A stretch of 32,000 bases of DNA from Methanosarcinales archaeon (GTDB lineage Archaea; Halobacteriota; Methanosarcinia; Methanosarcinales; Methanocomedenaceae). This document shows positions 5,389 through 27,627 of this stretch, piece by piece (the stretch's first letter is position 1; each line of letters starts with the position of its first letter). Under the pieces are notes generated by a model, which had not been told where the DNA came from, searched no databases, and worked only from the letters and a program-made list of their open reading frames with translations. The stretch is taken from the NCBI GenBank assembly GCA_030600695.1, contig JAUVLO010000004.1, positions 1 to 32,000 on the forward strand, given 5' to 3'. A program made the position numbers and the translations under genes.

Positions 5389-5613
5389 ATGAAGTTACCA
5401 GTCGTTTCAGGCGAGAAGGCAATTAAGGCATTTTTAAATGCTGGTTTTGTAAAAGTCAGGCAGCGTGGAAGCCATGTAAGATTGGAAAAGATTGAAGGTA
5501 ATGATATAATTAAACTTACAGTTCCATTACATAATCCAATGAAGAAAGGGACTCTGAGCAGATTAATTAAAGATGCTGGTTTAACAATCGATGAATTTGT
5601 TAATCTGTTGTGA
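5389..5613 (+). CDS. hicA: HicA-family mRNA interferase toxin
   Basis: MKLPVVSGEKAIKAFLNAGFVKVRQRGSHVRLEK... is a typical HicA. The ATG at 5389 is in frame with track ORF 5347..5613. Confidence 0.8.
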   Translation: MKLPVVSGEKAIKAFLNAGFVKVRQRGSHVRLEKIEGNDIIKLTVPLHNPMKKGTLSRLIKDAGLTIDEFVNLL

Positions 5614-5626
5614 TTTTATACCCTAC

Positions 5627-5695
5627 CCCTGCCACCGCAGCCCTTCAGGGGCAGCAGGTGGCAGCCAACCTTGTTGATTCGAATAAGCCTTGAAC
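5627..5695 (+). repeat. F repeat copy 2
   Basis: ccctgccaccgcagcccttcaggggcagcaggtggcagccaaccttgttgattcgaataagccttgaac. Confidence 0.75.
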
Positions 5696-5725
5696 TTATT
5701 CCGCCCCCTCTATTCTTCGGCTTTC

Positions 5726-5868
5726 CTGCCGCCCATCTCGCTGCGCCCTACCCTGGCGTTCATCTGGCATGCAGAACGGGCTGGCTGGCGCTTTGCTTTA
5801 ATAGTGTCTCGTGGATGCATGGGTGTCAGTGTCCGGACCTCACTCTACCGTGGGACGATGAGTCTTGG
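5726..5868 (+). repeat. C-type repeat copy D
   Basis: ctgccgcccatctcgct...gggctggctggcg...tgcatgggtgtcagtgtccggacctca...acgatgag. Same orientation as copy C, with several indels (roughly 70-75 percent similarity by eye). Confidence 0.7.
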
Positions 5869-5940
5869 TCTAAGAAGTTCCGCAGTACTGGCAAACCCAT
5901 AGCATATGGTCGGAAAATAAGAGTATAACAAAATATTAAG

Positions 5941-6195: not shown

Positions 6196-6543
6196 CTACA
6201 CCAGTTTCAACTTGCCCACGACCTTGTCCAGTTTCTCAACAGGTCCGGGCCCGATACCCAGTACAGTAACGGTCCCAGGTGGTATCTGGGTAAGTCCGGC
6301 ATCAGTGATAAGGGCAGTAGACAGCCCTTCCCTGCGTGCCGACTCCTTCAACAGAAATAGGTCCTGCAGCGTGCCGGTCTTAAGTACGACCTTCTTCTGC
6401 CCGTCCTTCATCCAGGAATCACGTTCCTTCTTATCAGCAAAATCAGAGGCGGTTACGGCTGCATGTGCCACCTGTACAGCCAGCTTGCCTTTTGAAAGTT
6501 TAAGGTCATCACGGGTTACGATACACTGCTTGTATTCAGTCAT
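6196..6543 (-). CDS. pth2: Archaeal-type peptidyl-tRNA hydrolase (Pth2)
   Basis: MTEYKQCIVTRDDLKLSKGKLAVQVAHAAV...KVVLK...ITDAG.T.I..GT.TVLGIGP is the PTH2 family pattern. I prefer the start at 6543. Confidence 0.85.
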   Translation of the reverse strand: MTEYKQCIVTRDDLKLSKGKLAVQVAHAAVTASDFADKKERDSWMKDGQKKVVLKTGTLQDLFLLKESARREGLSTALITDAGLTQIPPGTVTVLGIGPGPVEKLDKVVGKLKLV

Positions 6544-7279
6544 TGATGAGCATCCCATCCTTATCGAATTTCAATGAGTTCGTAGTTCGCTGGTGCCATT
6601 CTTCACCAAGCTTCAAGGCTTCATCCCTGTTGAAATCACCTATCTCCACATCCTCGTCAGTGAATCCGGATATGGACGACATAGGTATGTACAGTTTCTC
6701 AGCCCCGTGCTTGAACACAAGATTCCCGGCATCAATGGAAATAGTCTCACCGATCCTCTGCCCGTGCTGCACCACGAACTTGCAGAGTATGTCCTGTTTT
6801 GATATGGGTTTTTCCTCATCCTGCCCCTGGTCGGGTGGTTGGGATTGAGGAGCTCTTAGTGGTTCGGCAGGTTGGGGTTGAGGGGCTTTTATTGGTGCGG
6901 CAGGTTCACCTGGCACTTCTTTTTCGGCCTGCGCCTTTGATGGAACCGGATGGGGTATGGACATCGAGTGCCAGTCCAGATCGTCATGTTTGTGTTCCCA
7001 TTTGCTGCCCACCTGCCTGCTCTGTTTTGTTTGATTTTCATCCTTCCCCGGGCTACCGGGTGCTGCCTCTGCACCTACACTTTTCTGTTCAACCGCAGAA
7101 CCCTGGGCAGAATGCACATTCCCGGCAGCTACTACTGGCTTTTTGTCTTCCCCGGCAACTACCACCGGCTTCTTATCTTCACCGGTAGTTGCTACCTGCT
7201 TCTTATCTTTCCCGGCAGCACCGGAATCATCTGTCCCACATCGCCCTATTAGTTTGTTGAAAGTGTCTTTAAATCCCAT
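6536..7279 (-). CDS. Hypothetical protein with a disordered repeat-rich N-terminal two-thirds and a compact C-terminal domain
   Basis: 247 aa. Contains 10-aa tandem repeats GKDKKQVATT/GEDKKPVVVA/GEDKKPVVAA and a PQ-rich stretch. The C-terminal ~85 aa (KFVVQHGQRIGETISIDAGNLVFKHG...) looks globular. Lies in an apparent operon with pth2. Confidence 0.6.
   Translation of the reverse strand: MGFKDTFNKLIGRCGTDDSGAAGKDKKQVATTGEDKKPVVVAGEDKKPVVAAGNVHSAQGSAVEQKSVGAEAAPGSPGKDENQTKQSRQVGSKWEHKHDDLDWHSMSIPHPVPSKAQAEKEVPGEPAAPIKAPQPQPAEPLRAPQSQPPDQGQDEEKPISKQDILCKFVVQHGQRIGETISIDAGNLVFKHGAEKLYIPMSSISGFTDEDVEIGDFNRDEALKLGEEWHQRTTNSLKFDKDGMLIND
7121..7210. repeat. In-gene tandem repeat, 3 x 30 nt
   Basis: cccggcagctactactggctttttgtcttc / cccggcaactaccaccggcttcttatcttc / accggtagttgctacctgcttcttatcttt. 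These encode the 10-aa repeats of the 6536..7279 protein. Confidence 0.85.
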
Positions 7280-8437: not shown

Positions 8438-8535
8438 GTCTTGTTCTTCACCGGATTATATTTTCATTCTGTATATAGTAGCGTCATAACATAATATAAT
8501 AATGTTTATAGGTGGTAAGACCACAGAGAAAAAAT

Positions 8536-9492
8536 ATGGATATTTCAGATCATCCAAAGGTGCGTCTCAGGGATTTTATTATTACCAGGGAAGGGTGGAT
8601 ATTCTCATCAGCCGATTACCACCACCCTGAAGGTGTCAGGGGCGTGCTGCGCTATGTACCTGACCCTGAAGGCGAGCGTACAGACGGCACCCGGAATTAC
8701 CGGAAATACGATTTTGACGAAGCATATGATTACATGGAGCTCCACAAGCCAGAGTGGGTGCAGGATGTCCACATCATACCATGGGACCAGGTCGAGCGGG
8801 TGTTGAGCCCCACGGACCGACTGGCAGGGATATGGCGCTCTGACCCAAGGATCGAAGAGATAACCAGGACCCTGCTGGAGGCTGGGATTCCCATGGACAG
8901 TATAGGAATAACAGGGTCATTCCTGCCCGGCCTGCAGATAAGTGTTTCCGACATTGATCTTGTGGTATATGGTCCCATGTGGTTCAGGGCCAGGGATATA
9001 ATAGCCAGGGCAAAGGACGATCCCCACAGCAGCATCGAGCACCTGGATGAGGGGATGTGGGAGCGTATCTACAATAAGCGAATTCCTGAGATCAGTTTTG
9101 AGGAGTTCAAACTCCATGAGATGAGAAAGGGTAACAGGGGAATGATTGGAGATACATATTTCGATCTGCTGTTTGTCAGGGACTGGGACCAGGTCAGTGA
9201 ACCAACGGGCAGGGGTGCGGACATGGGTCATGAGACCATAGAGGCGGTGGTGACAGATTCAGAACTGGCTTTTGACAGCCCTTCGGTCTATAAGGTGGAT
9301 CATCCCGTGATCGAGTATGTGCTATCCTACACCCATACCTATGCCGGGCAGGCACTGGCAGGCGAGACCATAGAGGCCAGGGGCATGGTAGAAGAGGTGA
9401 ATGGTCACAGGCGGCTGGTCGTGGGTACCAGCAGGGAACCAAAAGGTGAATGGATACGCTCGCTGACCCTGCTTGGGTCTTCCGGACAATAG
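8536..9492 (+). CDS. Predicted nucleotidyltransferase (Pol-beta superfamily fold)
   Basis: ITGSFLPGLQISVSDIDLVVYGP is a GS...DxD NTase signature. I prefer the ATG at 8536 within track ORF 8512..9492. Confidence 0.6.
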   Translation: MDISDHPKVRLRDFIITREGWIFSSADYHHPEGVRGVLRYVPDPEGERTDGTRNYRKYDFDEAYDYMELHKPEWVQDVHIIPWDQVERVLSPTDRLAGIWRSDPRIEEITRTLLEAGIPMDSIGITGSFLPGLQISVSDIDLVVYGPMWFRARDIIARAKDDPHSSIEHLDEGMWERIYNKRIPEISFEEFKLHEMRKGNRGMIGDTYFDLLFVRDWDQVSEPTGRGADMGHETIEAVVTDSELAFDSPSVYKVDHPVIEYVLSYTHTYAGQALAGETIEARGMVEEVNGHRRLVVGTSREPKGEWIRSLTLLGSSGQ

Positions 9493-9766: not shown

Positions 9767-9994
9767 CATGACTGTGACATCACAGCAGACACAATCCTTA
9801 CTATCGTACCCGCCACCGCAGGTTCGCTCATAATGGTCTCGCTGGTGGTGCTACTGCAGCAACTGATCTACCATCTCCCACCCGCACTGGTGCTGGTTCT
9901 TTCGGTCGGGGTGGGTCCGGTATCGTATTCCGTGTTCATCTGGTTGACGCAGAAAGAAGAGATAGGGGAGATCAAGCGGTTGATTAGAGGCTGA
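9767..9994 (+). pseudogene. C-terminal remnant of a Wzx/MOP-type polysaccharide flippase
   Basis: The frame opens after TAA at 9764-66 and reads ...AGSLIMVSLVVLLQQLIYHLPPALVLVLSVGVGPVSYSVFIWLTQKEEIGEIKRLIRG*. Two terminal TM helices plus a charged tail are typical of flippase C-termini. There is no upstream body. Confidence 0.4.
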
Positions 9995-10221
9995 ACTTGA
10001 GCTAAGAGATGTTACCCAAACCGACGCACCAACCGCGTGCGGTCCACCTGCATCAAACAGAACATGCGAGACACCAATCTAACGAGAATCTGGATTGTTG
10101 TTACCACCCTTGGCCTTGGGTTGCTTGACAGAAAAGATTTGTGACAGGTTATGAGCAAATTACTGGATTATATGATAATGCCGTATAAGGGAATTTCTTT
10201 TTGAATTCGATGTGGGATGAG

Positions 10222-10827
10222 TTAGTATTCAAGCATGACTTTTGCTTTTATTTGAGCTACATCTTGTTCTATCATTGAAATCCTCTCATCAAAATGAGAC
10301 CTAAAATCATCTTTAGTGGAGCGGATTTCGGATGTTATTTCTATTCTGTTTTGATCGATTTTACCACTAAGATTATCTCCAAGATGATCGATCTTACCAC
10401 CAAGATAATCGATCTTACCACCAAGATTATCTCCAAGATAATCGATCTTACCACCAACTCCATCGATTTTTTGGCTGAGATTTGAGTTCATTTCTCTCAT
10501 ATATCTCACTGCTGCATCCATTCTTTCGTAAGTTGCTGTGGTCAGGTCTTCTTCTCTAATAACATCAAATGTTCTATACTCACCAGTTGGCTTTTTATAA
10601 ACCACGTCAATTTTTTCTACGCGTATAGGGTACTGAGTAATATTAATTTTTTCAAGCAATTCTTTGATATCGTCTTCTTTCCCTTCTGAGATAATCTGCA
10701 CTGTCCCGTCATCAAGATTTTTAACATATCCATTAAGATTCAGATTAAAAGCGATCTCATCAATGAAATCTCTGAAACCTGCTTTCTGAACTCTACCGTA
10801 TACTATGATCTCTGCACGTTTTTCCAT
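10222..10827 (-). CDS. Acylphosphatase-like domain fused to a 7/11-residue tandem-repeat and coiled-coil C-terminal region
   Basis: The N-terminus AEIIVYGRVQKAGFRDFIDEIAFNLNLNGYVKNLDDGTVQIISEG is the acylphosphatase signature. The C-terminus holds repeats GVGGKID/YLGDNLGGKID/YLGGKID/HLGDNLSGKID. Confidence 0.75.
   Translation of the reverse strand: MEKRAEIIVYGRVQKAGFRDFIDEIAFNLNLNGYVKNLDDGTVQIISEGKEDDIKELLEKINITQYPIRVEKIDVVYKKPTGEYRTFDVIREEDLTTATYERMDAAVRYMREMNSNLSQKIDGVGGKIDYLGDNLGGKIDYLGGKIDHLGDNLSGKIDQNRIEITSEIRSTKDDFRSHFDERISMIEQDVAQIKAKVMLEY
10354..10470. repeat. In-gene tandem repeat with alternating 33-nt and 21-nt units
   Basis: atcgattttaccactaagattatctccaagatg / atcgatcttaccaccaagata / atcgatcttaccaccaagattatctccaagata / atcgatcttaccaccaactcc. 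Confidence 0.9.
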
Positions 10828-10926
10828 ACCAAACCTATTTTCTTAAAAGAATATAAACGTTGTTCTCTGTTTGTTTTTGGCCTCACACATGAAAATTAAG
10901 TATATGGAGACAAATGGCTGCCAGCT

Positions 10927-11145
10927 GTGGCAGTGCTTCAGGTGCTCTGCCTCTACGGACTGAGCAGTGCATACCTGAAAACCACAGAAAACCTCTATCT
11001 CGCAGCCGGACAGCCCAAGATCATGACAAAGATCAACCTTTTGCAGCTTATCTTAATGGCAGTACTGATCTATCCCTTAACCCTCAGATACGGCATCCCC
11101 GGAATAGGAATAGCAGCGGCAGTACCGCCCGCGCTGGTACTTTAG
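10927..11145 (+). pseudogene. Internal fragment of a Wzx/MOP-type flippase
   Basis: ...LYLAAGQPKIMTKINLLQLILMAVLIYPLTLRYGIPGIGIAAAVPPALVL* resembles the penultimate TM pair of flippases. It has no N-terminal body and ends at TAG, after which plausible hydrophobic sequence continues. Confidence 0.35.
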
Positions 11146-11332
11146 ATCGGCCTGGGTGCGGTAAGTCAACAGACTGTTGTTATTGTAAATACACTGTGGT
11201 ATATTTAGGCATTCCTAAGTATATAGTTTGTGAAAGATTTACAAGGCTTTTATTGCGAACAATGAATAACTCTTTATACTCAAATTATTCTGGCAAATGG
11301 GAGGATTTTCGTGGTGACTTTATGGACCTGAT

Positions 11333-11469
11333 TTACAGGATGCACAGGATGCACAGGATGAGGATGTCAACCAATATCCTGTAAATCCCGTAAATCCTGT
11401 CTGAAGATTTGATTGAATTTAAGAAAATTACTTATATCGATATCGAAATGCGTTTATACTTTCCTATAC
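11333..11469 (-). repeat. E1 repeat, inverted copy, with an ACAGGAT-unit hairpin (11335-11401)
   Basis: The reverse complement reads tgtataggaaagtataaacgcatttcgatatcgatataagtaattttc...tcaatcaaatcttcagacaggatttacgggatttacaggat... Confidence 0.8.
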
Positions 11470-11676
11470 ATTAAATAAAATTATAAATAAATGAATTCTT
11501 GAGATTTGCAGCTATTCCGCAATCAGGCAATTTTCTTAAAAACCATTGACCTTCTATAAAATTAGCACTCAAAATGTTCTTTAGAGACAACATTCATCCA
11601 GGCAAGTAGTCACTCGTTGACGATTATAATTGTCCGGATGCGTTTTGAACACAAAAATCAAGAAAAACTGGCTAAC

Positions 11677-13485
11677 ATGAAAGATATAATTACAAGCTCC
11701 AGGGAAGAATTGGCAAGATTATTATGGAAGTCTGACCCTACTATTCACAGGATACTGAAGAATAGTATTAACTTCCATGATTCCAGGAATGAGATTTTCC
11801 GTTATTTAAATGGTATAGATGCATCATTGTTCACAATATATTCCCATAGTAAACAGGATATGAATATCCTGGAAAAAAAGAATGCGCGGGATTGCATAAG
11901 GGTTCTAAAGACCATTTTGCGGACCCAAAATGAAAAACAAACACATTTCTCGGCTCTAAGGGCTTTGTATAGCATTGCAAAGAAAAACAAGGTACCTAAG
12001 AATATCAGTGAGGGGTTCCTTTTCGAGTTTATTTACCTGTTCAGGGGAATTAATGGGAATTCCGGGTTATTGGCTGAAAAAGAAAAACCTCCATTTCTAG
12101 ATCTCGATGGAATGGATGCCGCCCTTGAGAGAACAAAGTTCCTTGATGATTATTCTAAAAGAATGGACCTGTCTTTTAAGAAATACAGGACCGGTCTGGA
12201 CCATGACCTGGTCCCTGAAAGAGATGATATGAAAAAACGTATTTTACAGCAATTCGGTGGAGATGAGGAGGACTGGACTGACTACAAATGGCACCTGGGC
12301 CATATTATTTCTGATATTGATACGCTCCAAAATGTGGTAACATTGGACAGGGGGGAAATACGTGGTCTTAAATTAGCTATTGAAAATAATATCCCGTTCC
12401 AGATAACACCGTATTACTTATCCTTATTTGACAGGGAGAACCGGAAACAATATGACCATTCTATAAGGGCACAGGTGCTGCCCAGTGAGACGTACTGCCA
12501 GAACTATTTAAAGAGCATCCGGACAGGGGCAAGCCTGGATTTCATGGATGAGGCTTCGACCAGCCCTATTGAAACCATTACCAGGAGATATCCTAAGATA
12601 CTTATTTTAAAACCGTTTCAATCATGCCCACAGATTTGTGTCTATTGCCAGAGGAACTGGGAGATCAAAAGTCTTCAGGATGGTAGTATAACGAAGGAGA
12701 CTACATTAAAGGCGATTGACTGGATAAAAGCCAATCCGCATATCAGCGAAGTGCTGGTAACGGGAGGCGACCCGTTGACGCTGAACGATTCCATTCTTGA
12801 CAGGCTCCTTGGCATGATCTCTGACATCGAACATGTGGAACGGATCAGGATTGGGACCCGGACGCTGGTAACACTGCCTTTCAGGTTTACAGACAACCTG
12901 ATCGATATCTTTAGTAAATATCACAAGCTGGGGAAACGGGACGTGTGCATCGTGACACATTTCCAGCATCCTACTGAGATCACTCCTGACACTATTGATG
13001 CGGTGTCAAGGATCAAGAAACAGGGCATTAATATTTACAACCAGCAGGTTTTTACTTATTATAACAGTAAGAAGTTCGAAAGTTGCCTGCTTAGAAAAAC
13101 CATGACGAGATCAGGTATCGATCCCTATTATACTTTTAACACCAAGGGCAAGGAAGAGACTATAGATTACCGTGTACCTATCTCAAGGCTTGAGCAGGAA
13201 CGACATGAAGAAGCCAGGCTCCTCCCAGGACTGGAGCGAACTGATGAGTCGGTGTTCAATGTACCCAGGCTGGGTAAGTCCCACCTGAGGGCGTGGCAGG
13301 ACCATGAGGTGATCATGATACTTCCGGATGGCAGGCGTGTGTACCGGTTTTATCCATGGGAGTCCAAGATGGAGCTTGTGGAGCCTTATAATTATGTGGA
13401 TGTGTCCATATACCGCTATTTAAAACGGTTGTATTATGATGGCGAGGATGTTGATGAGTATAAGTCCATATGGTATTATTTCTGA
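11677..13485 (+). CDS. KamA-family (lysine 2,3-aminomutase-like) radical SAM/PLP enzyme with a ~215-aa extra N-terminal region
   Basis: CPQICVYCQRNW is the CxxxCxxC cluster. WTDYKWHLGHII...IPFQITPYYLSLFD is the KamA N-terminal motif. VTGGDPL is present, and NVPRLGKSH carries a candidate PLP lysine. I prefer the ATG at 11677 within track ORF 11617..13485. Confidence 0.8.
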   Translation: MKDIITSSREELARLLWKSDPTIHRILKNSINFHDSRNEIFRYLNGIDASLFTIYSHSKQDMNILEKKNARDCIRVLKTILRTQNEKQTHFSALRALYSIAKKNKVPKNISEGFLFEFIYLFRGINGNSGLLAEKEKPPFLDLDGMDAALERTKFLDDYSKRMDLSFKKYRTGLDHDLVPERDDMKKRILQQFGGDEEDWTDYKWHLGHIISDIDTLQNVVTLDRGEIRGLKLAIENNIPFQITPYYLSLFDRENRKQYDHSIRAQVLPSETYCQNYLKSIRTGASLDFMDEASTSPIETITRRYPKILILKPFQSCPQICVYCQRNWEIKSLQDGSITKETTLKAIDWIKANPHISEVLVTGGDPLTLNDSILDRLLGMISDIEHVERIRIGTRTLVTLPFRFTDNLIDIFSKYHKLGKRDVCIVTHFQHPTEITPDTIDAVSRIKKQGINIYNQQVFTYYNSKKFESCLLRKTMTRSGIDPYYTFNTKGKEETIDYRVPISRLEQERHEEARLLPGLERTDESVFNVPRLGKSHLRAWQDHEVIMILPDGRRVYRFYPWESKMELVEPYNYVDVSIYRYLKRLYYDGEDVDEYKSIWYYF

Positions 13486-13625: not shown

Positions 13626-14102
13626 CTATAAAAGATCTAACAAATCATCCACAGTAATTATATCAACATTAATTAGTTCATAAACTCGTTCTTTAACGTT
13701 AAGAAGTGATTTCACATCCATAGTAACAAGCGGTATTGCATAATGATGTGCAAGTGCGACTATAGGTGCATCTTTTGGCTCTATTCTAAGTGCTTAGGCC
13801 AGTGCTATGTTTTCTTCCCTCCCTTTCACTTCTCTTAATACGGTTTTATCAAAGTCCAGTGGTGTGAATGTCGTTTTTACATAAGGTTCTCTAAATAAAG
13901 ACCAAATTGCAGTTTGGAGCAGATTGATATCCTTTCCGCTTTTGTGCCCTTCAAAAATGACATTATCACTAATTTCTTTTGCCAGATATGCAGAAATTAT
14001 TGGCTTGACATCTCCATTAAATATTTTTTCTAAAATATAGGTACATTTAGCGTCAGTTCTTAGAAATGCATGGATCCAGACACATGAATCTATTACAATC
14101 AT
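13626..14102 (-). pseudogene. vapC: VapC-type PIN-domain toxin interrupted by an in-frame TAA (13794-13796)
   Basis: Track ORF 13794..14102 (MIVIDSCVWI...) stops at TAA. The same frame continues for 55 codons: ALRIEPKDAPIVALAHHYAIPLVTMDVKSLL...DLL*. That segment carries the third and fourth conserved PIN acidic positions. Confidence 0.7.
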
Positions 14103-14470
14103 GCAGTTTCCTGCAACTCTTTATAGGCTTTTGCATATTTACTTTCTACTTCATTTTTCGTAATCTGTATAGATCTATCAATGGATTCTTTTGTATTTTC
14201 AGATCCAAGAGAGGATAGAATTTTCAGTGCTTCACTGGTTTTCATGGGTTTTTTCCATGCATTGAGCATGATTTTTTTCGTGTCCAGCGTTTCTTTGAAA
14301 AGATCAGATTTTAGATTATAGATGCTTAAGTCTTCTAAATAAGACAGGATTGCTTTTTTGACAAAATTCTCTCTGCTCTTTGTGGATTTTGATTGTATCG
14401 TTCTATCAATCTTGTGGGCTAAAAATTCGCCGATGTTAACTTTCGCTGCAGTTTCTGACATCCATATCAC
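14099..14470 (-). CDS. Putative VapB-type antitoxin (possible ribbon-helix-helix N-terminus)
   Basis: 123-aa ORF overlapping the PIN gene start by 4 nt. ...SRENFVKKAILSYLEDL resembles CopG/RHH helices. Confidence 0.55.
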   Translation of the reverse strand: MIWMSETAAKVNIGEFLAHKIDRTIQSKSTKSRENFVKKAILSYLEDLSIYNLKSDLFKETLDTKKIMLNAWKKPMKTSEALKILSSLGSENTKESIDRSIQITKNEVESKYAKAYKELQETA

Positions 14471-24147: not shown

Positions 24148-24267
24148 CCATCACTGGCACTATATAGTCGTTCTAAACCATCACTGGTACCATATAGTCA
24201 TTCCCAACCACTACTGGTACTGTAATAGTCGTTCTAAACCATCACTGGTACTGCAATAGTTATTATC
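24148..24267. repeat. Tandem repeat, 4 x 30-31 nt, abutting the stop codon of the KaiC-like gene
   Basis: ccatcactggcactatatagtcgttctaaa / ccatcactggtaccatatagtcattcccaa / ccactactggtactgtaatagtcgttctaaa / ccatcactggtactgcaatagttattatc. Confidence 0.9.
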
Positions 24268-25033
24268 AGAATACTGTATAGACCTCTTCGTGCGGATGCA
24301 CAATTACCCCAGTTGTGGTAATTTCATAGGGATGGATCTTCTTGCTGTGGTCAGAGCCGCGCATCTTAAATATTTCAAGGCTGCGCACCCTTACATTTTC
24401 CATCCTCTTGTAATACAGGGCAATAGTCCCCTCGGTCACGAAGTTCTCAACTCCGAAACGACTTGGATGATCATCATCCACAACTTCGGAGGTCATCATT
24501 GAAGTCAGGCCCAGTATTTCCAGGGTGGTGGACAGTTTTAACAGTTCCACACGTATCTTGGCCGGGTCCTGTAGATAGAATCCAATAGATGTGGTGGAAT
24601 CTACTACTGCCCGTTTGGCATCGATCTCTTCCTGGATCATTATGATCTGGTCCATCATGGAACGCATGTCAAAGGGTCTCACGTCAACGTATTTTTCCTG
24701 TGATGGAATACCGATCTTGGTAGACGCCGCATCAATAATGGCAAGTTTCCCCTCATCCTCCAGTTTCTTCAGGTCCCAGCCGAATACTTTTGCATTGTCC
24801 CTGATGTGCTCAGGGCGCTCCTCAGTTGCTACAATAATGCCGTTCTCATTGTATTTGGTGATGCCGTTGTAAATGAATTGAAGCGCAAGAATGGATTTTC
24901 CAGCCCCTGAAGTTCCTGATATCAAGTATGAGTGGTCCCTTAACAGGCCGCCTTCGCAAAGCTCATCAAAACCTTCTATCCCGGTTGGAACGCGGGACAA
25001 TTCATCCTTAACATCGTTTGTATTTCCGTTCAT
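24266..25033 (-). CDS. Single-domain KaiC/RadA-like RecA-superfamily ATPase
   Basis: PTGIEGFDELCEGGLLRDHSYLISGTSGAGKSILALQFIYNG with Walker A and Walker B (AVVDS). 255 aa. Confidence 0.85.
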   Translation of the reverse strand: MNGNTNDVKDELSRVPTGIEGFDELCEGGLLRDHSYLISGTSGAGKSILALQFIYNGITKYNENGIIVATEERPEHIRDNAKVFGWDLKKLEDEGKLAIIDAASTKIGIPSQEKYVDVRPFDMRSMMDQIIMIQEEIDAKRAVVDSTTSIGFYLQDPAKIRVELLKLSTTLEILGLTSMMTSEVVDDDHPSRFGVENFVTEGTIALYYKRMENVRVRSLEIFKMRGSDHSKKIHPYEITTTGVIVHPHEEVYTVF

Positions 25034-27318: not shown

Positions 27319-27369
27319 CATGTTAATATTATTGTTATTAATATTCATGTTAATATTATTGTTAATATG
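27319..27369. repeat. Tandem repeat, 2 x ~25 nt, just downstream of the AMMECR1 gene
   Basis: catgttaatattattgttattaatatt / catgttaatattattgttaatatg. Confidence 0.8.
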
Positions 27370-27417
27370 ATATTTGCGGCACAGTTCCAAAATCCAGTGA
27401 TATCAACAATTATATTA

Positions 27418-27627
27418 GACGCAGATTAACGCTGATTAACGCAGATGCAGTATCCACTTTAAATCTAAGGGTAATTTAAAAATTATTAGACAGGATTAAC
27501 AGGATCGACAGGATATACCGCAACGCAACATCCTGTAAATTCTGTAAATCCGGTCAAAATACCATGCTTTTTGAAGTGGATACCAGATGCAACCTTAAAT
27601 CAGCGTAAATCTGCGTGAATCAGCGTC
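27418..27627 (+). repeat. Nested stuttered hairpins: outer CGCAGAT/CGCTGAT arms enclosing an inner ACAGGAT hairpin (27489-27555)
   Basis: Outer arms are gacgcagattaacgctgattaacgcagat and aaatcagcgtaaatctgcgtgaatcagcgtc. The inner hairpin is gacaggattaacaggatcgacaggatat-accgcaacgcaac-atcctgtaaattctgtaaatccggtc. Confidence 0.8.

Follow-up and report, generated by a model that had tools for sequence, protein, structure and literature searches.

Acylphosphatases (AcPs) are classic model proteins with a β–α–β–β–α–β, ferredoxin-like fold of about 90 residues, and their physiological role is still unclear. A gene from a Methanosarcinales archaeon (Methanocomedenaceae; assembly GCA_030600695.1) raises the question of what such a domain does when it heads a long tail encoded in part by tandem DNA repeats. 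The gene lies at 10222..10827 on the minus strand of the window, by which we mean the whole 32,000-nucleotide stretch analyzed here (positions 1 to 32,000 of contig JAUVLO010000004.1). According to the open reading frame (ORF) list and the sequence, it is a complete coding sequence that starts at an ATG, specifies 201 residues plus a stop codon, and encodes an AcP head followed by a predicted coiled-coil stalk. We consider it probable that the product carries its AcP-type head on a coiled-coil stalk that is homo-oligomeric and that lengthens or shortens by slippage in register. The AcP domain itself is of a known kind; what is new here is the length-variable, predicted coiled-coil stalk attached to it, an architecture for which scans of the window protein found no model in Pfam or NCBIfam.

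The head is matched by the Pfam model PF00708 over residues 6–88 (10564..10812, minus strand; E 1.3e-20, 73.9 bits against a cut-off of 22.5), within a fold spanning approximately residues 1–90. Archaeal and bacterial acylphosphatases in the PDB also match the window protein, that of S. solfataricus with E 3e-15. AlphaFold2 (AF2), run here on monomers and, for the window protein, with 50 homologues, predicts the canonical order of AcP strands and helices with a predicted local distance difference test score (pLDDT) of ~76–93, and Foldseek superposes this model on S. solfataricus AcP (2bjd/4ojh) with a template modeling (TM) score of 0.94 and a root-mean-square deviation (rmsd) of 1.4–1.5 Å. 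The second AcP signature, G-[FYW]-[AVC]-[KRQAM]-N-x3-G-x-V-x5-G, is fully matched (G33-Y-V-K-N37-LDD-G-T-V-QIISE-G), and G33, V35, and the catalytic Asn37 are invariant in 50 aligned homologues. The first signature, the phosphate-binding loop with the catalytic arginine, has the PROSITE consensus [LIV]-x-G-x-V-Q-G-V-x-[FM]-R. The corresponding region of the window protein, V-Y-G-R-V-Q-K-A-G-F-R, keeps the catalytic Arg19 and replaces G-V with K-A. This VQKAGFR motif recurs in 115 of 120 close homologues, distant members have K, R, Q, E, or G at the altered site, and nearly every family member found retains the arginine of the GFR motif. None of the 25 listed NCBIfam acylphosphatase equivalog models reached its cut-off, the best score being 70.7 against 103 (NF011012). 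Because of the VQKA loop and these sub-cut-off scores, the head is, as far as its sequence goes, a divergent acylphosphatase subfamily. Since the catalytic arginine and asparagine are kept, it probably still binds a ligand of the acyl- or carbamoyl-phosphate type and likely hydrolyzes it.

Beyond the head, the gene encodes a repeat cassette between two conserved stalk segments, all on the minus strand. The N-proximal segment (residues 92–122, EEDLTTATYERMDAAVRYMREMNSNLSQKID; 10462..10554) ends with a degenerate founder unit, NLSQKID (10462–10482), that adjoins the array, and residues A98, T99, Y100, M103, D104, R108, Y109, M113, and N114 within it are invariant among 50 homologues. The C-terminal segment (residues 159–201, QNRIEITSEIRSTKDDFRSHFDERISMIEQDVAQIKAKVMLEY; 10225..10353) is helical in the AF2 model with pLDDT 77–87; in the same 50 homologues E163, R182, and E187 are invariant and many charged residues are nearly so. 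The cassette between them (residues 123–158; 10354..10461) parses into the units GVGGKID (10441–10461), YLGDNLGGKID (10408–10440), YLGGKID (10387–10407), and HLGDNLSGKID (10354–10386), that is, 7, 11, 7, and 11 residues encoded by 21, 33, 21, and 33 nt. Together with the PF00708 match, this parsing bears out an original prediction, made from the sequence alone, of an AcP domain fused to a 7/11-residue repeat written in 21- and 33-nt DNA units. The units follow exactly the order given there, and the array ends at 10461 rather than at 10470.

The repetition is also evident at the nucleotide level. Tandem Repeats Finder (TRF) detects 1.9 copies of a 54-nt period (94% matches, score 187), and like-sized units are 86–91% identical in DNA, so that calling the repeats near-perfect was correct as to repetition and somewhat generous in wording. 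The best 54-nt self-match, 48/54, is far above that of 300 codon shuffles (mean 29.5, sd 1.4, maximum 37), which argues that the repeat did not arise by chance. The 11-residue unit is itself a heptad with an internal four-codon duplication, in which CTTGGAGATAAT (LGDN) is followed by CTTGGTGGTAAG (LGGK), detected by TRF as a period of 12 at 10421–10443. Short antisense or alternative-frame ORFs over the array (10294–10485, plus strand; 10341–10463, minus strand), and an apparently conserved cluster of antisense ORFs at 17 loci, were set aside as by-products of the repeat.

In the AF2 model of the window protein (mean pLDDT 79), residues 98–200 form one continuous helix. The pLDDT is 73–87 over residues 121–200, which comprise array and tail, 51–63 for residues 91–120, and below 50 for residues 94–101. 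Hydrophobic periodicity is 3.64 in the C-terminal half of the protein, 3.54–3.56 in heptad-only homologues, and 3.66 in a hendecad-rich homologue. Reading the register from the units places Ile at position a and Leu or Val at position d, with h taken by the additional Leu that each hendecad brings, the pattern expected for a coiled coil that mixes 7/2 and 11/3 periodicities. The hydrophobic stripe is narrow (2/7 or 3/11 residues) and coiled-coil-like, and the tail matches only generic coiled-coil Pfam families (DUF1664, HSBP1). With periodicities of 3.5–3.67 and a single predicted helix over residues 98–200, the original prediction's reading of a heptad/hendecad coiled coil is supported. A β-solenoid or RTX-like calcium-binding roll (GGxGxD, 9-/18-residue turns), suggested by the G-G-K-I-D motif and by the sum 7 + 11 = 18, was rejected because heptads alone make up most arrays in the family, units of different size combine freely, the GGxGxDxUx pattern is not followed, and AF2 predicts a helix.

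The fusion is not rare and proves to be common. Among 5.8 billion proteins searched, 361 matched the window protein, with full-length homologues at E values down to 1e-110; an exact-sequence look-up found no record of the window protein itself. The best 120 of the 361 (E <1e-76, 151–302 aa, almost all full-length with few truncated fragments) served as the set of close homologues, and the named sources among them are Methanosarcina (including M. mazei), ANME-2/'Ca. Methanomarinus', and unclassified Euryarchaeota. Further members turned up by scanning genomes belong to Methanolobus, Ca. Methanoperedens, Methanocomedens, and other Methanosarcinales. When 1.84 billion representatives were searched exhaustively with HMMER, 407 clusters matched at E ≤1e-10, and among 148 newly seen representatives from the best 150 of these, 118 show the AcP motif and, after it, a long tail (median ~118 residues past the AcP domain). 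The distant members with a named source include sequences of Thermoplasmata and Nitrososphaerota. Where the window protein has its array, distant members have other heptads (e.g., EKQDxML, GEKVDxV, MDSHIQR), and their tails show self-similarity at lags of 7, 14, 21, 11, and 18. The AcP-stalk architecture is widespread in archaea, and the window gene is one more member rather than a singular oddity. The database label for the close homologues is plain 'acylphosphatase', so the family is common without being annotated as a fusion, and the refuting outcome named beforehand, a common annotated family, holds in part. Our literature search found no study of it, its sole trace being the tandem-repeat tables of Borg elements (PMC9879509).

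Array length is what varies most within this family. In the 120 closest homologues the N-terminal ~122 residues are fixed and the C-terminal tail is mostly 41–43 residues long (58–60 in a subset), and the array between them measures 0, 7, 11, 18, and so on up to 138 residues, always in units of 7, 11, or 18. Most family arrays consist purely of heptads, successive K-x-D anchors are mostly 7, 11, or 18 residues apart, and the 18-mer, QNRxEIREMNSNLGQKID, duplicates the array junction. A close comparison comes from the window and the related loci L001 and L002, in which the coding DNA flanking the array is 95–96% identical (~90% at third codon positions) and the arrays differ, with units of 7-11-7-11 residues in the window, 7-11-11-11 in L001, and seven heptads in L002. 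Units within a gene are 86–100% identical in DNA in the window's clade. An ANME-2-like cluster at 90% protein identity contains forms of 221, 228, 235, and 263 residues that differ by whole heptads, and an M. lacustris-like cluster contains alleles of 205, 212, and 219 residues. Contigs L021, L022, and L030 break inside the array, as repeats would lead one to expect. Array turnover in the window's clade is recent and fast, in agreement with the predicted recent expansion and length polymorphism.

A different regime is seen in Methanosarcina, where units are 65–77% identical in DNA and the count in M. mazei stays at 10 heptads (233 aa) throughout ~200 contigs from many strains. A fixed copy number with diverged DNA, the pattern named beforehand as evidence for old, constrained repeats, is therefore found in M. 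mazei and is absent from the window's clade. Among 74 heptads from eight Methanosarcina species, the motif x-L-G-G-K-[IMV]-D is 81–99% conserved per position (counting [IMV] as a class), and all synonymous Gly, Lys, and Asp codons are in use. Conservation of the motif alongside divergence of its synonymous codons indicates that the heptad, including the glycine beside the core leucine, is under purifying selection and is not merely young.

Some Methanosarcinales carry more than one member of the family. The metagenome-assembled genomes (MAGs) CSMAG_887 (L016, L017, L025) and CSMAG_2516 (L020, L028) encode two or three paralogues each, among which is a repeat-free 165-aa form beside repeat-bearing ones, and these array variants may be functionally distinct. 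Separately, two metagenomic proteins of the M. lacustris-like cluster (P0311 and P0312) have frame shifts inside the heptad array that yield ...SSVGKWILSAGKLM..., which are either sequencing or assembly errors or genuine frameshift alleles.

In the mechanism that we propose, the stalk would be an α-helix of ~100 residues (~15 nm) that forms a homo-oligomeric coiled coil, and its conserved ends (residues 92–122 and 159–200) would carry specific oligomerization or partner contacts. The modules between them, of 7 and 11 residues and each anchored by its K-I-D, make up a length cassette. Because both unit sizes would keep the hydrophobic seam unbroken, the gain or loss of 21- or 33-nt units, presumably through replication slippage or unequal recombination, would change the length of the stalk without breaking its fold.

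Several observations weigh against this proposal. The AF2 model of the M. mazei orthologue has a helix over residues 95–232, with pLDDT of only 41–58 in the array, and AF2 often renders heptad-like sequences as long helices. The arrays are 23–28% glycine, with an invariant glycine beside the core leucine, a content atypical for coiled coils that could mark a flexible or conditionally folded segment. Oligomerization of the stalk is argued from a monomer prediction. The existence of repeat-free 165-aa members means that the array is dispensable for the basic fold. With regard to the head, the change from VQGV to VQKA and the missed NCBIfam cut-offs mean that catalysis is not assured. Finally, the glycan-gene context described below is absent at one ANME-2 locus and outside the Methanosarcinales.

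The genomic setting bears on where the gene came from and on what it may do. An archaeal-type, TATA-box-like element, TTTATATT, can be read off the sequence at 10850..10857 on the minus strand, centered ~26 nt upstream of the ATG; it is a putative promoter, from which the mRNA would be leaderless or have a very short leader. The gene product has neither a signal peptide nor a transmembrane segment and is taken to be cytoplasmic. The gene is flanked by two flippase remnants, as had been predicted, and tblastn with the intact 477-aa flippase of a relative confirms that both are real. One, on the plus strand at 10900..11142, corresponds to residues 313–393 of this MOP-type (Polysacc_synt) protein (94% identity, E 1e-40; 91–92% to relatives by blastp) and begins on the strand opposite to the AcP gene, 73 nt upstream of that gene's start codon. 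The other, also on the plus strand, at 9800..9991, corresponds to the C-terminal residues 414–477 (83% identity, E 3e-26) and sits 231 nt downstream of the AcP stop codon. Because the plus-strand order is flippase C-terminal piece, AcP gene, flippase middle piece, the AcP gene does not split one flippase gene. At the related loci L002 and L003, an intact flippase gene is accompanied by two partial copies that start at residue ~313–316 (the flippase regions lie at 5601–5928, 8495–8980, and 10002–11433); the AcP gene and toxin-antitoxin modules occupy the space between these regions, and the junction 'flippase residue 313, ~73 nt, ATG' is common to the window and both loci. The 3' third of the flippase gene has been copied repeatedly in the window's clade with differing cargo between the copies (AcP gene, toxin-antitoxin pairs), which points to a recombination hotspot or to serial integrations at the flippase 3' end. 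Given the shared residue-313 junction, the remnants are traces of a local duplication of the flippase 3' end that took place around an AcP gene already resident there.

Genes for glycan synthesis recur near the family in other genomes. In Methanosarcina the AcP gene lies between GT2 or epimerase genes on one side and a convergent block of two surface-protein genes and a flippase gene on the other, in Methanolobus GT2, GT4, and epimerase genes are nearby, and glycan or flippase genes occur within ~8 kb at 15 of 24 loci (loci of at least 7 kb). Giant surface proteins flank the family gene at a Thermoplasmata locus and at one other locus. No universal neighbor was found among distant members, whose contigs are short and whose neighbors include AAA_14/DUF4143, PIN, archease, and housekeeping genes. 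Weakly, the flippase, glycosyltransferase, and surface-protein neighbors hint at a role near cell-envelope glycan assembly. The window itself is a chromosomal housekeeping region that includes genes for tRNA-Gly, dihydroneopterin aldolase, a SIS-domain protein, a KamA-like radical-SAM protein, a PAN-type AAA ATPase, a KaiC-like protein, AMMECR1, TYW2, a pyridoxal phosphate (PLP)-dependent, MfnA-like decarboxylase, and LarC; a Borg or other extrachromosomal origin was rejected on this content. IMG/VR viral contigs contained no relatives of the window protein, PADLOC gave only a weak match to the LeoA coiled coil, and the one PHROG match was a 92-position family of unknown function that covers the AcP domain only. 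A role in defense or in phage biology was rejected on the PADLOC and PHROG results.

Among the other explanations that we weighed, the one with the best chance, although still an unlikely one, is neutral slippage in a permissive linker, in which case array length would have no functional meaning and the protein would work the same with 0 or 20 units. Its advocates could point to the stable clade formed by the repeat-free 165-aa members, to a MAG with repeat-free and repeat-bearing paralogues side by side, and to arrays of 0–138 residues with no obvious optimum across lineages. Neutrality is hard to square, however, with exactly 10 heptads in ~200 M. mazei contigs, with purifying selection on L-G-G-K-[IM]-D in the face of synonymous divergence, and with the restriction to register-preserving unit sizes (7, 11, and 18), which together indicate that the sequence of the array is constrained. 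A second account, very improbable in our estimate, treats the gene as a recently inserted accessory or mobile gene, much as the original prediction had done when it read the isolated gene as an accessory insertion. The flanking flippase remnants, the toxin-antitoxin modules beside the gene in relatives, and an integrase fragment and a PIN gene 3–4 kb away are what such an insertion might leave behind. Yet the family is conserved across the Methanosarcinales (Methanosarcina, Methanolobus, Methanoperedens, ANME-2), its recurrent flippase and glycan neighbors indicate that the linkage is ancestral, and the junction shared with L002 and L003 marks the remnants as local duplications, so that accessory insertion is not the best reading. 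The absence of IMG/VR relatives and of a meaningful PADLOC match, the confinement of the PHROG match to the AcP domain, and the chromosomal housekeeping content of the rest of the window also speak against mobility.

The remaining alternatives give the stalk a more specific task. A tail lying on lipid or on another hydrophobic surface, as an amphipathic 11-mer helix of the apolipoprotein, LEA, or perilipin kind, would fit an 11-residue periodicity of 3.67, which is typical of such helices. Several homologues have precomputed PF01442 matches, and the tail weakly resembles ApoA-IV (PDB 3s84; phmmer E 5e-4, 23.9 bits). We give this idea scarcely any weight, since a scan of the window protein with E values allowed up to 1 yields no PF01442 match, the hydrophobic stripe is narrow (2/7 or 3/11), most units are net acidic, and most family arrays are pure heptads. 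Somewhat less remote, but improbable all the same, is a molecular ruler or spacer for envelope glycan assembly, which would keep the AcP head a fixed distance away from whatever partner the tail binds and let slippage tune that distance heritably. We know of no step in glycan synthesis that requires an acylphosphatase. The idea draws on the recurrence of the gene, in Methanosarcina, Methanolobus, and the window's clade, next to genes for GT2, flippase, epimerase, UDP-glucose dehydrogenase, and surface proteins, on the large surface proteins that adjoin it at the Thermoplasmata and one other locus, on the conservation of both stalk ends around a variable middle, and on the established principle of coiled-coil rulers (PMC5082667, PMC3482155). 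It is weakened by gaps of 360–560 nt to the neighboring genes, which leave no tight operon, by an unrelated context in ANME-2 and at other distant loci, by the lack of any evident membrane-binding element in the protein, and by synteny that, among related genomes, is not phylogenetically independent. In its most developed form, which we regard as a long shot, the protein would be an archaeal 'tunable spacer' enzyme whose tail docks on an envelope-glycan or S-layer machine, with 21/33-nt slippage as a heritable dial on the distance of the head and on a surface-polymer property that differs between strains. If this were true, archaea would have their own equivalent of WbdD and other coiled-coil rulers, with an evolvability like that of contingency loci.

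A coiled-coil stalk of changeable length on an AcP head, the reading that we favor, can be set against several known systems. With stand-alone AcPs (S. solfataricus, PDB 2bjd; P. horikoshii, 1w2i; PF00708, EC 3.6.1.7) the window protein shares the ferredoxin-like fold (TM 0.94, 40% identity over 90 residues), the catalytic arginine and asparagine, and the second signature motif. It differs from them in ~110 extra C-terminal residues predicted to form a coiled coil, in the VQKA rather than VQGV loop, and in missing all NCBIfam equivalog cut-offs. Non-heptad coiled coils (hendecads, 11/3) are found in tetrabrachion and in the stalks of trimeric autotransporter adhesins, which resemble the predicted AcP stalk in mixing 7- and 11-residue units along a continuous hydrophobic seam with a periodicity of 3.5–3.67. 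Unlike these stalks, the AcP-stalk protein is cytoplasmic and small, and has glycine-rich units with an invariant glycine at heptad position e. The only non-AcP multi-domain structures matched by Foldseek were the BLUF-coiled-coil photoactivated adenylyl cyclases bPAC and OaPAC (PDB 5m27, 4yut; TMq 0.32–0.35, rmsd 11–12 Å), in which a ferredoxin-like N-terminal domain likewise precedes a long helix; the window protein lacks an effector domain and a flavin-binding motif, and the likeness is architectural only.

The nearest parallel is an acylphosphatase of the Red Borg, a 175-aa protein with an AcP domain at residues 8–78 and seven perfect KLVEGQN heptads at residues 114–162 (Schoelmerich et al., PMC9879509, tables). 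As far as the tabulated description allows comparison, architecture and array position are the same. The Red Borg repeats are perfect copies of another heptad on an extrachromosomal element, whereas the window gene is chromosomal and has imperfect, mixed 7/11 units. More generally, Borg amino acid tandem repeats (aaTRs) are encoded by perfect DNA tandem repeats and typically create intrinsically disordered regions (PMC9879509), unlike the window repeats, which are 86–94% identical, have chromosomal neighbors, and lie in a region predicted to be helical. WbdD of E. coli O9a, whose coiled coil sets O-antigen chain length (PMC3482155; reviewed in PMC5082667), also has a catalytic head on a coiled coil, here a predicted one, and the AcP-stalk gene often lies in a glycan-synthesis neighborhood. 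As in coiled-coil rulers, length is the main variable between relatives. The AcP-stalk family has no sequence homology to WbdD and no detected membrane anchor, and a ruler role is suggested for it by gene neighborhood only. WbdD length, moreover, is fixed per serotype and is not encoded by near-identical DNA repeats.

A large archaeal AcP-stalk family thus occurs in the genetically tractable Methanosarcina, with a stalk that appears built for length variation. The stalked arrangement implies that the AcP acts from a defined position or with a defined valency instead of as a free enzyme, and offers a new handle on AcP function. The family is also a clean natural case of what is probably DNA repeat slippage limited to register-preserving units of 7, 11, and 18 residues, with a fast regime in the window's clade and in ANME-2 and a frozen regime in M. 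mazei, and it connects chromosomal genes with a Borg-encoded tandem-repeat protein that had already been tabulated.

Additional features were noted around the gene and elsewhere in the window. The flippase remnant at 10900..11142 adjoins a gene on the plus strand (11617–13485) for a 622-aa radical-SAM protein with Radical_SAM and Fer4_12 Pfam matches, which has a long N-terminal extension before a domain at approximately residues 333–446 and was judged KamA-like by eye. In the non-coding or remnant DNA between the two is a perfect 9-nt repeat of 2.9 copies (ACAGGATGC; 11335–11360). Approximately 3 kb from the AcP gene, a PIN-domain gene (13794–14102) abuts a phage-integrase-like fragment (14099–14470; weak, E 0.007), both on the minus strand, which hints that a mobile element has decayed there. 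The window has another coding tandem repeat, in the minus-strand gene at 6536–7279 for a 247-aa DUF5749-domain protein, whose low-complexity N-terminus contains 10/11-aa repeats of the form GEDKKPVVxAG, encoded by a 30-nt array of 3.3 copies (7121–7219) and a 33-nt array of 2.1 copies (6837–6906). Directly 3' of the KaiC-like gene (24266–25033, minus strand) is an apparently intergenic 30-nt array of 3.5 copies with 80% matches (24148–24252). Clustered 9–10-nt tandem motifs (ATTAACGCAG, ATTAACAGG, and TAAATCAGCG) occupy the intergenic region after the AMMECR1 gene (27321–27626), and similar 10-nt repeats of the ATCTG(T/C)G type lie at 1148–1174 and 2446–2473. With a spacing equal to one turn of the DNA helix, these 9–10-nt motifs could be regulator-binding sites.

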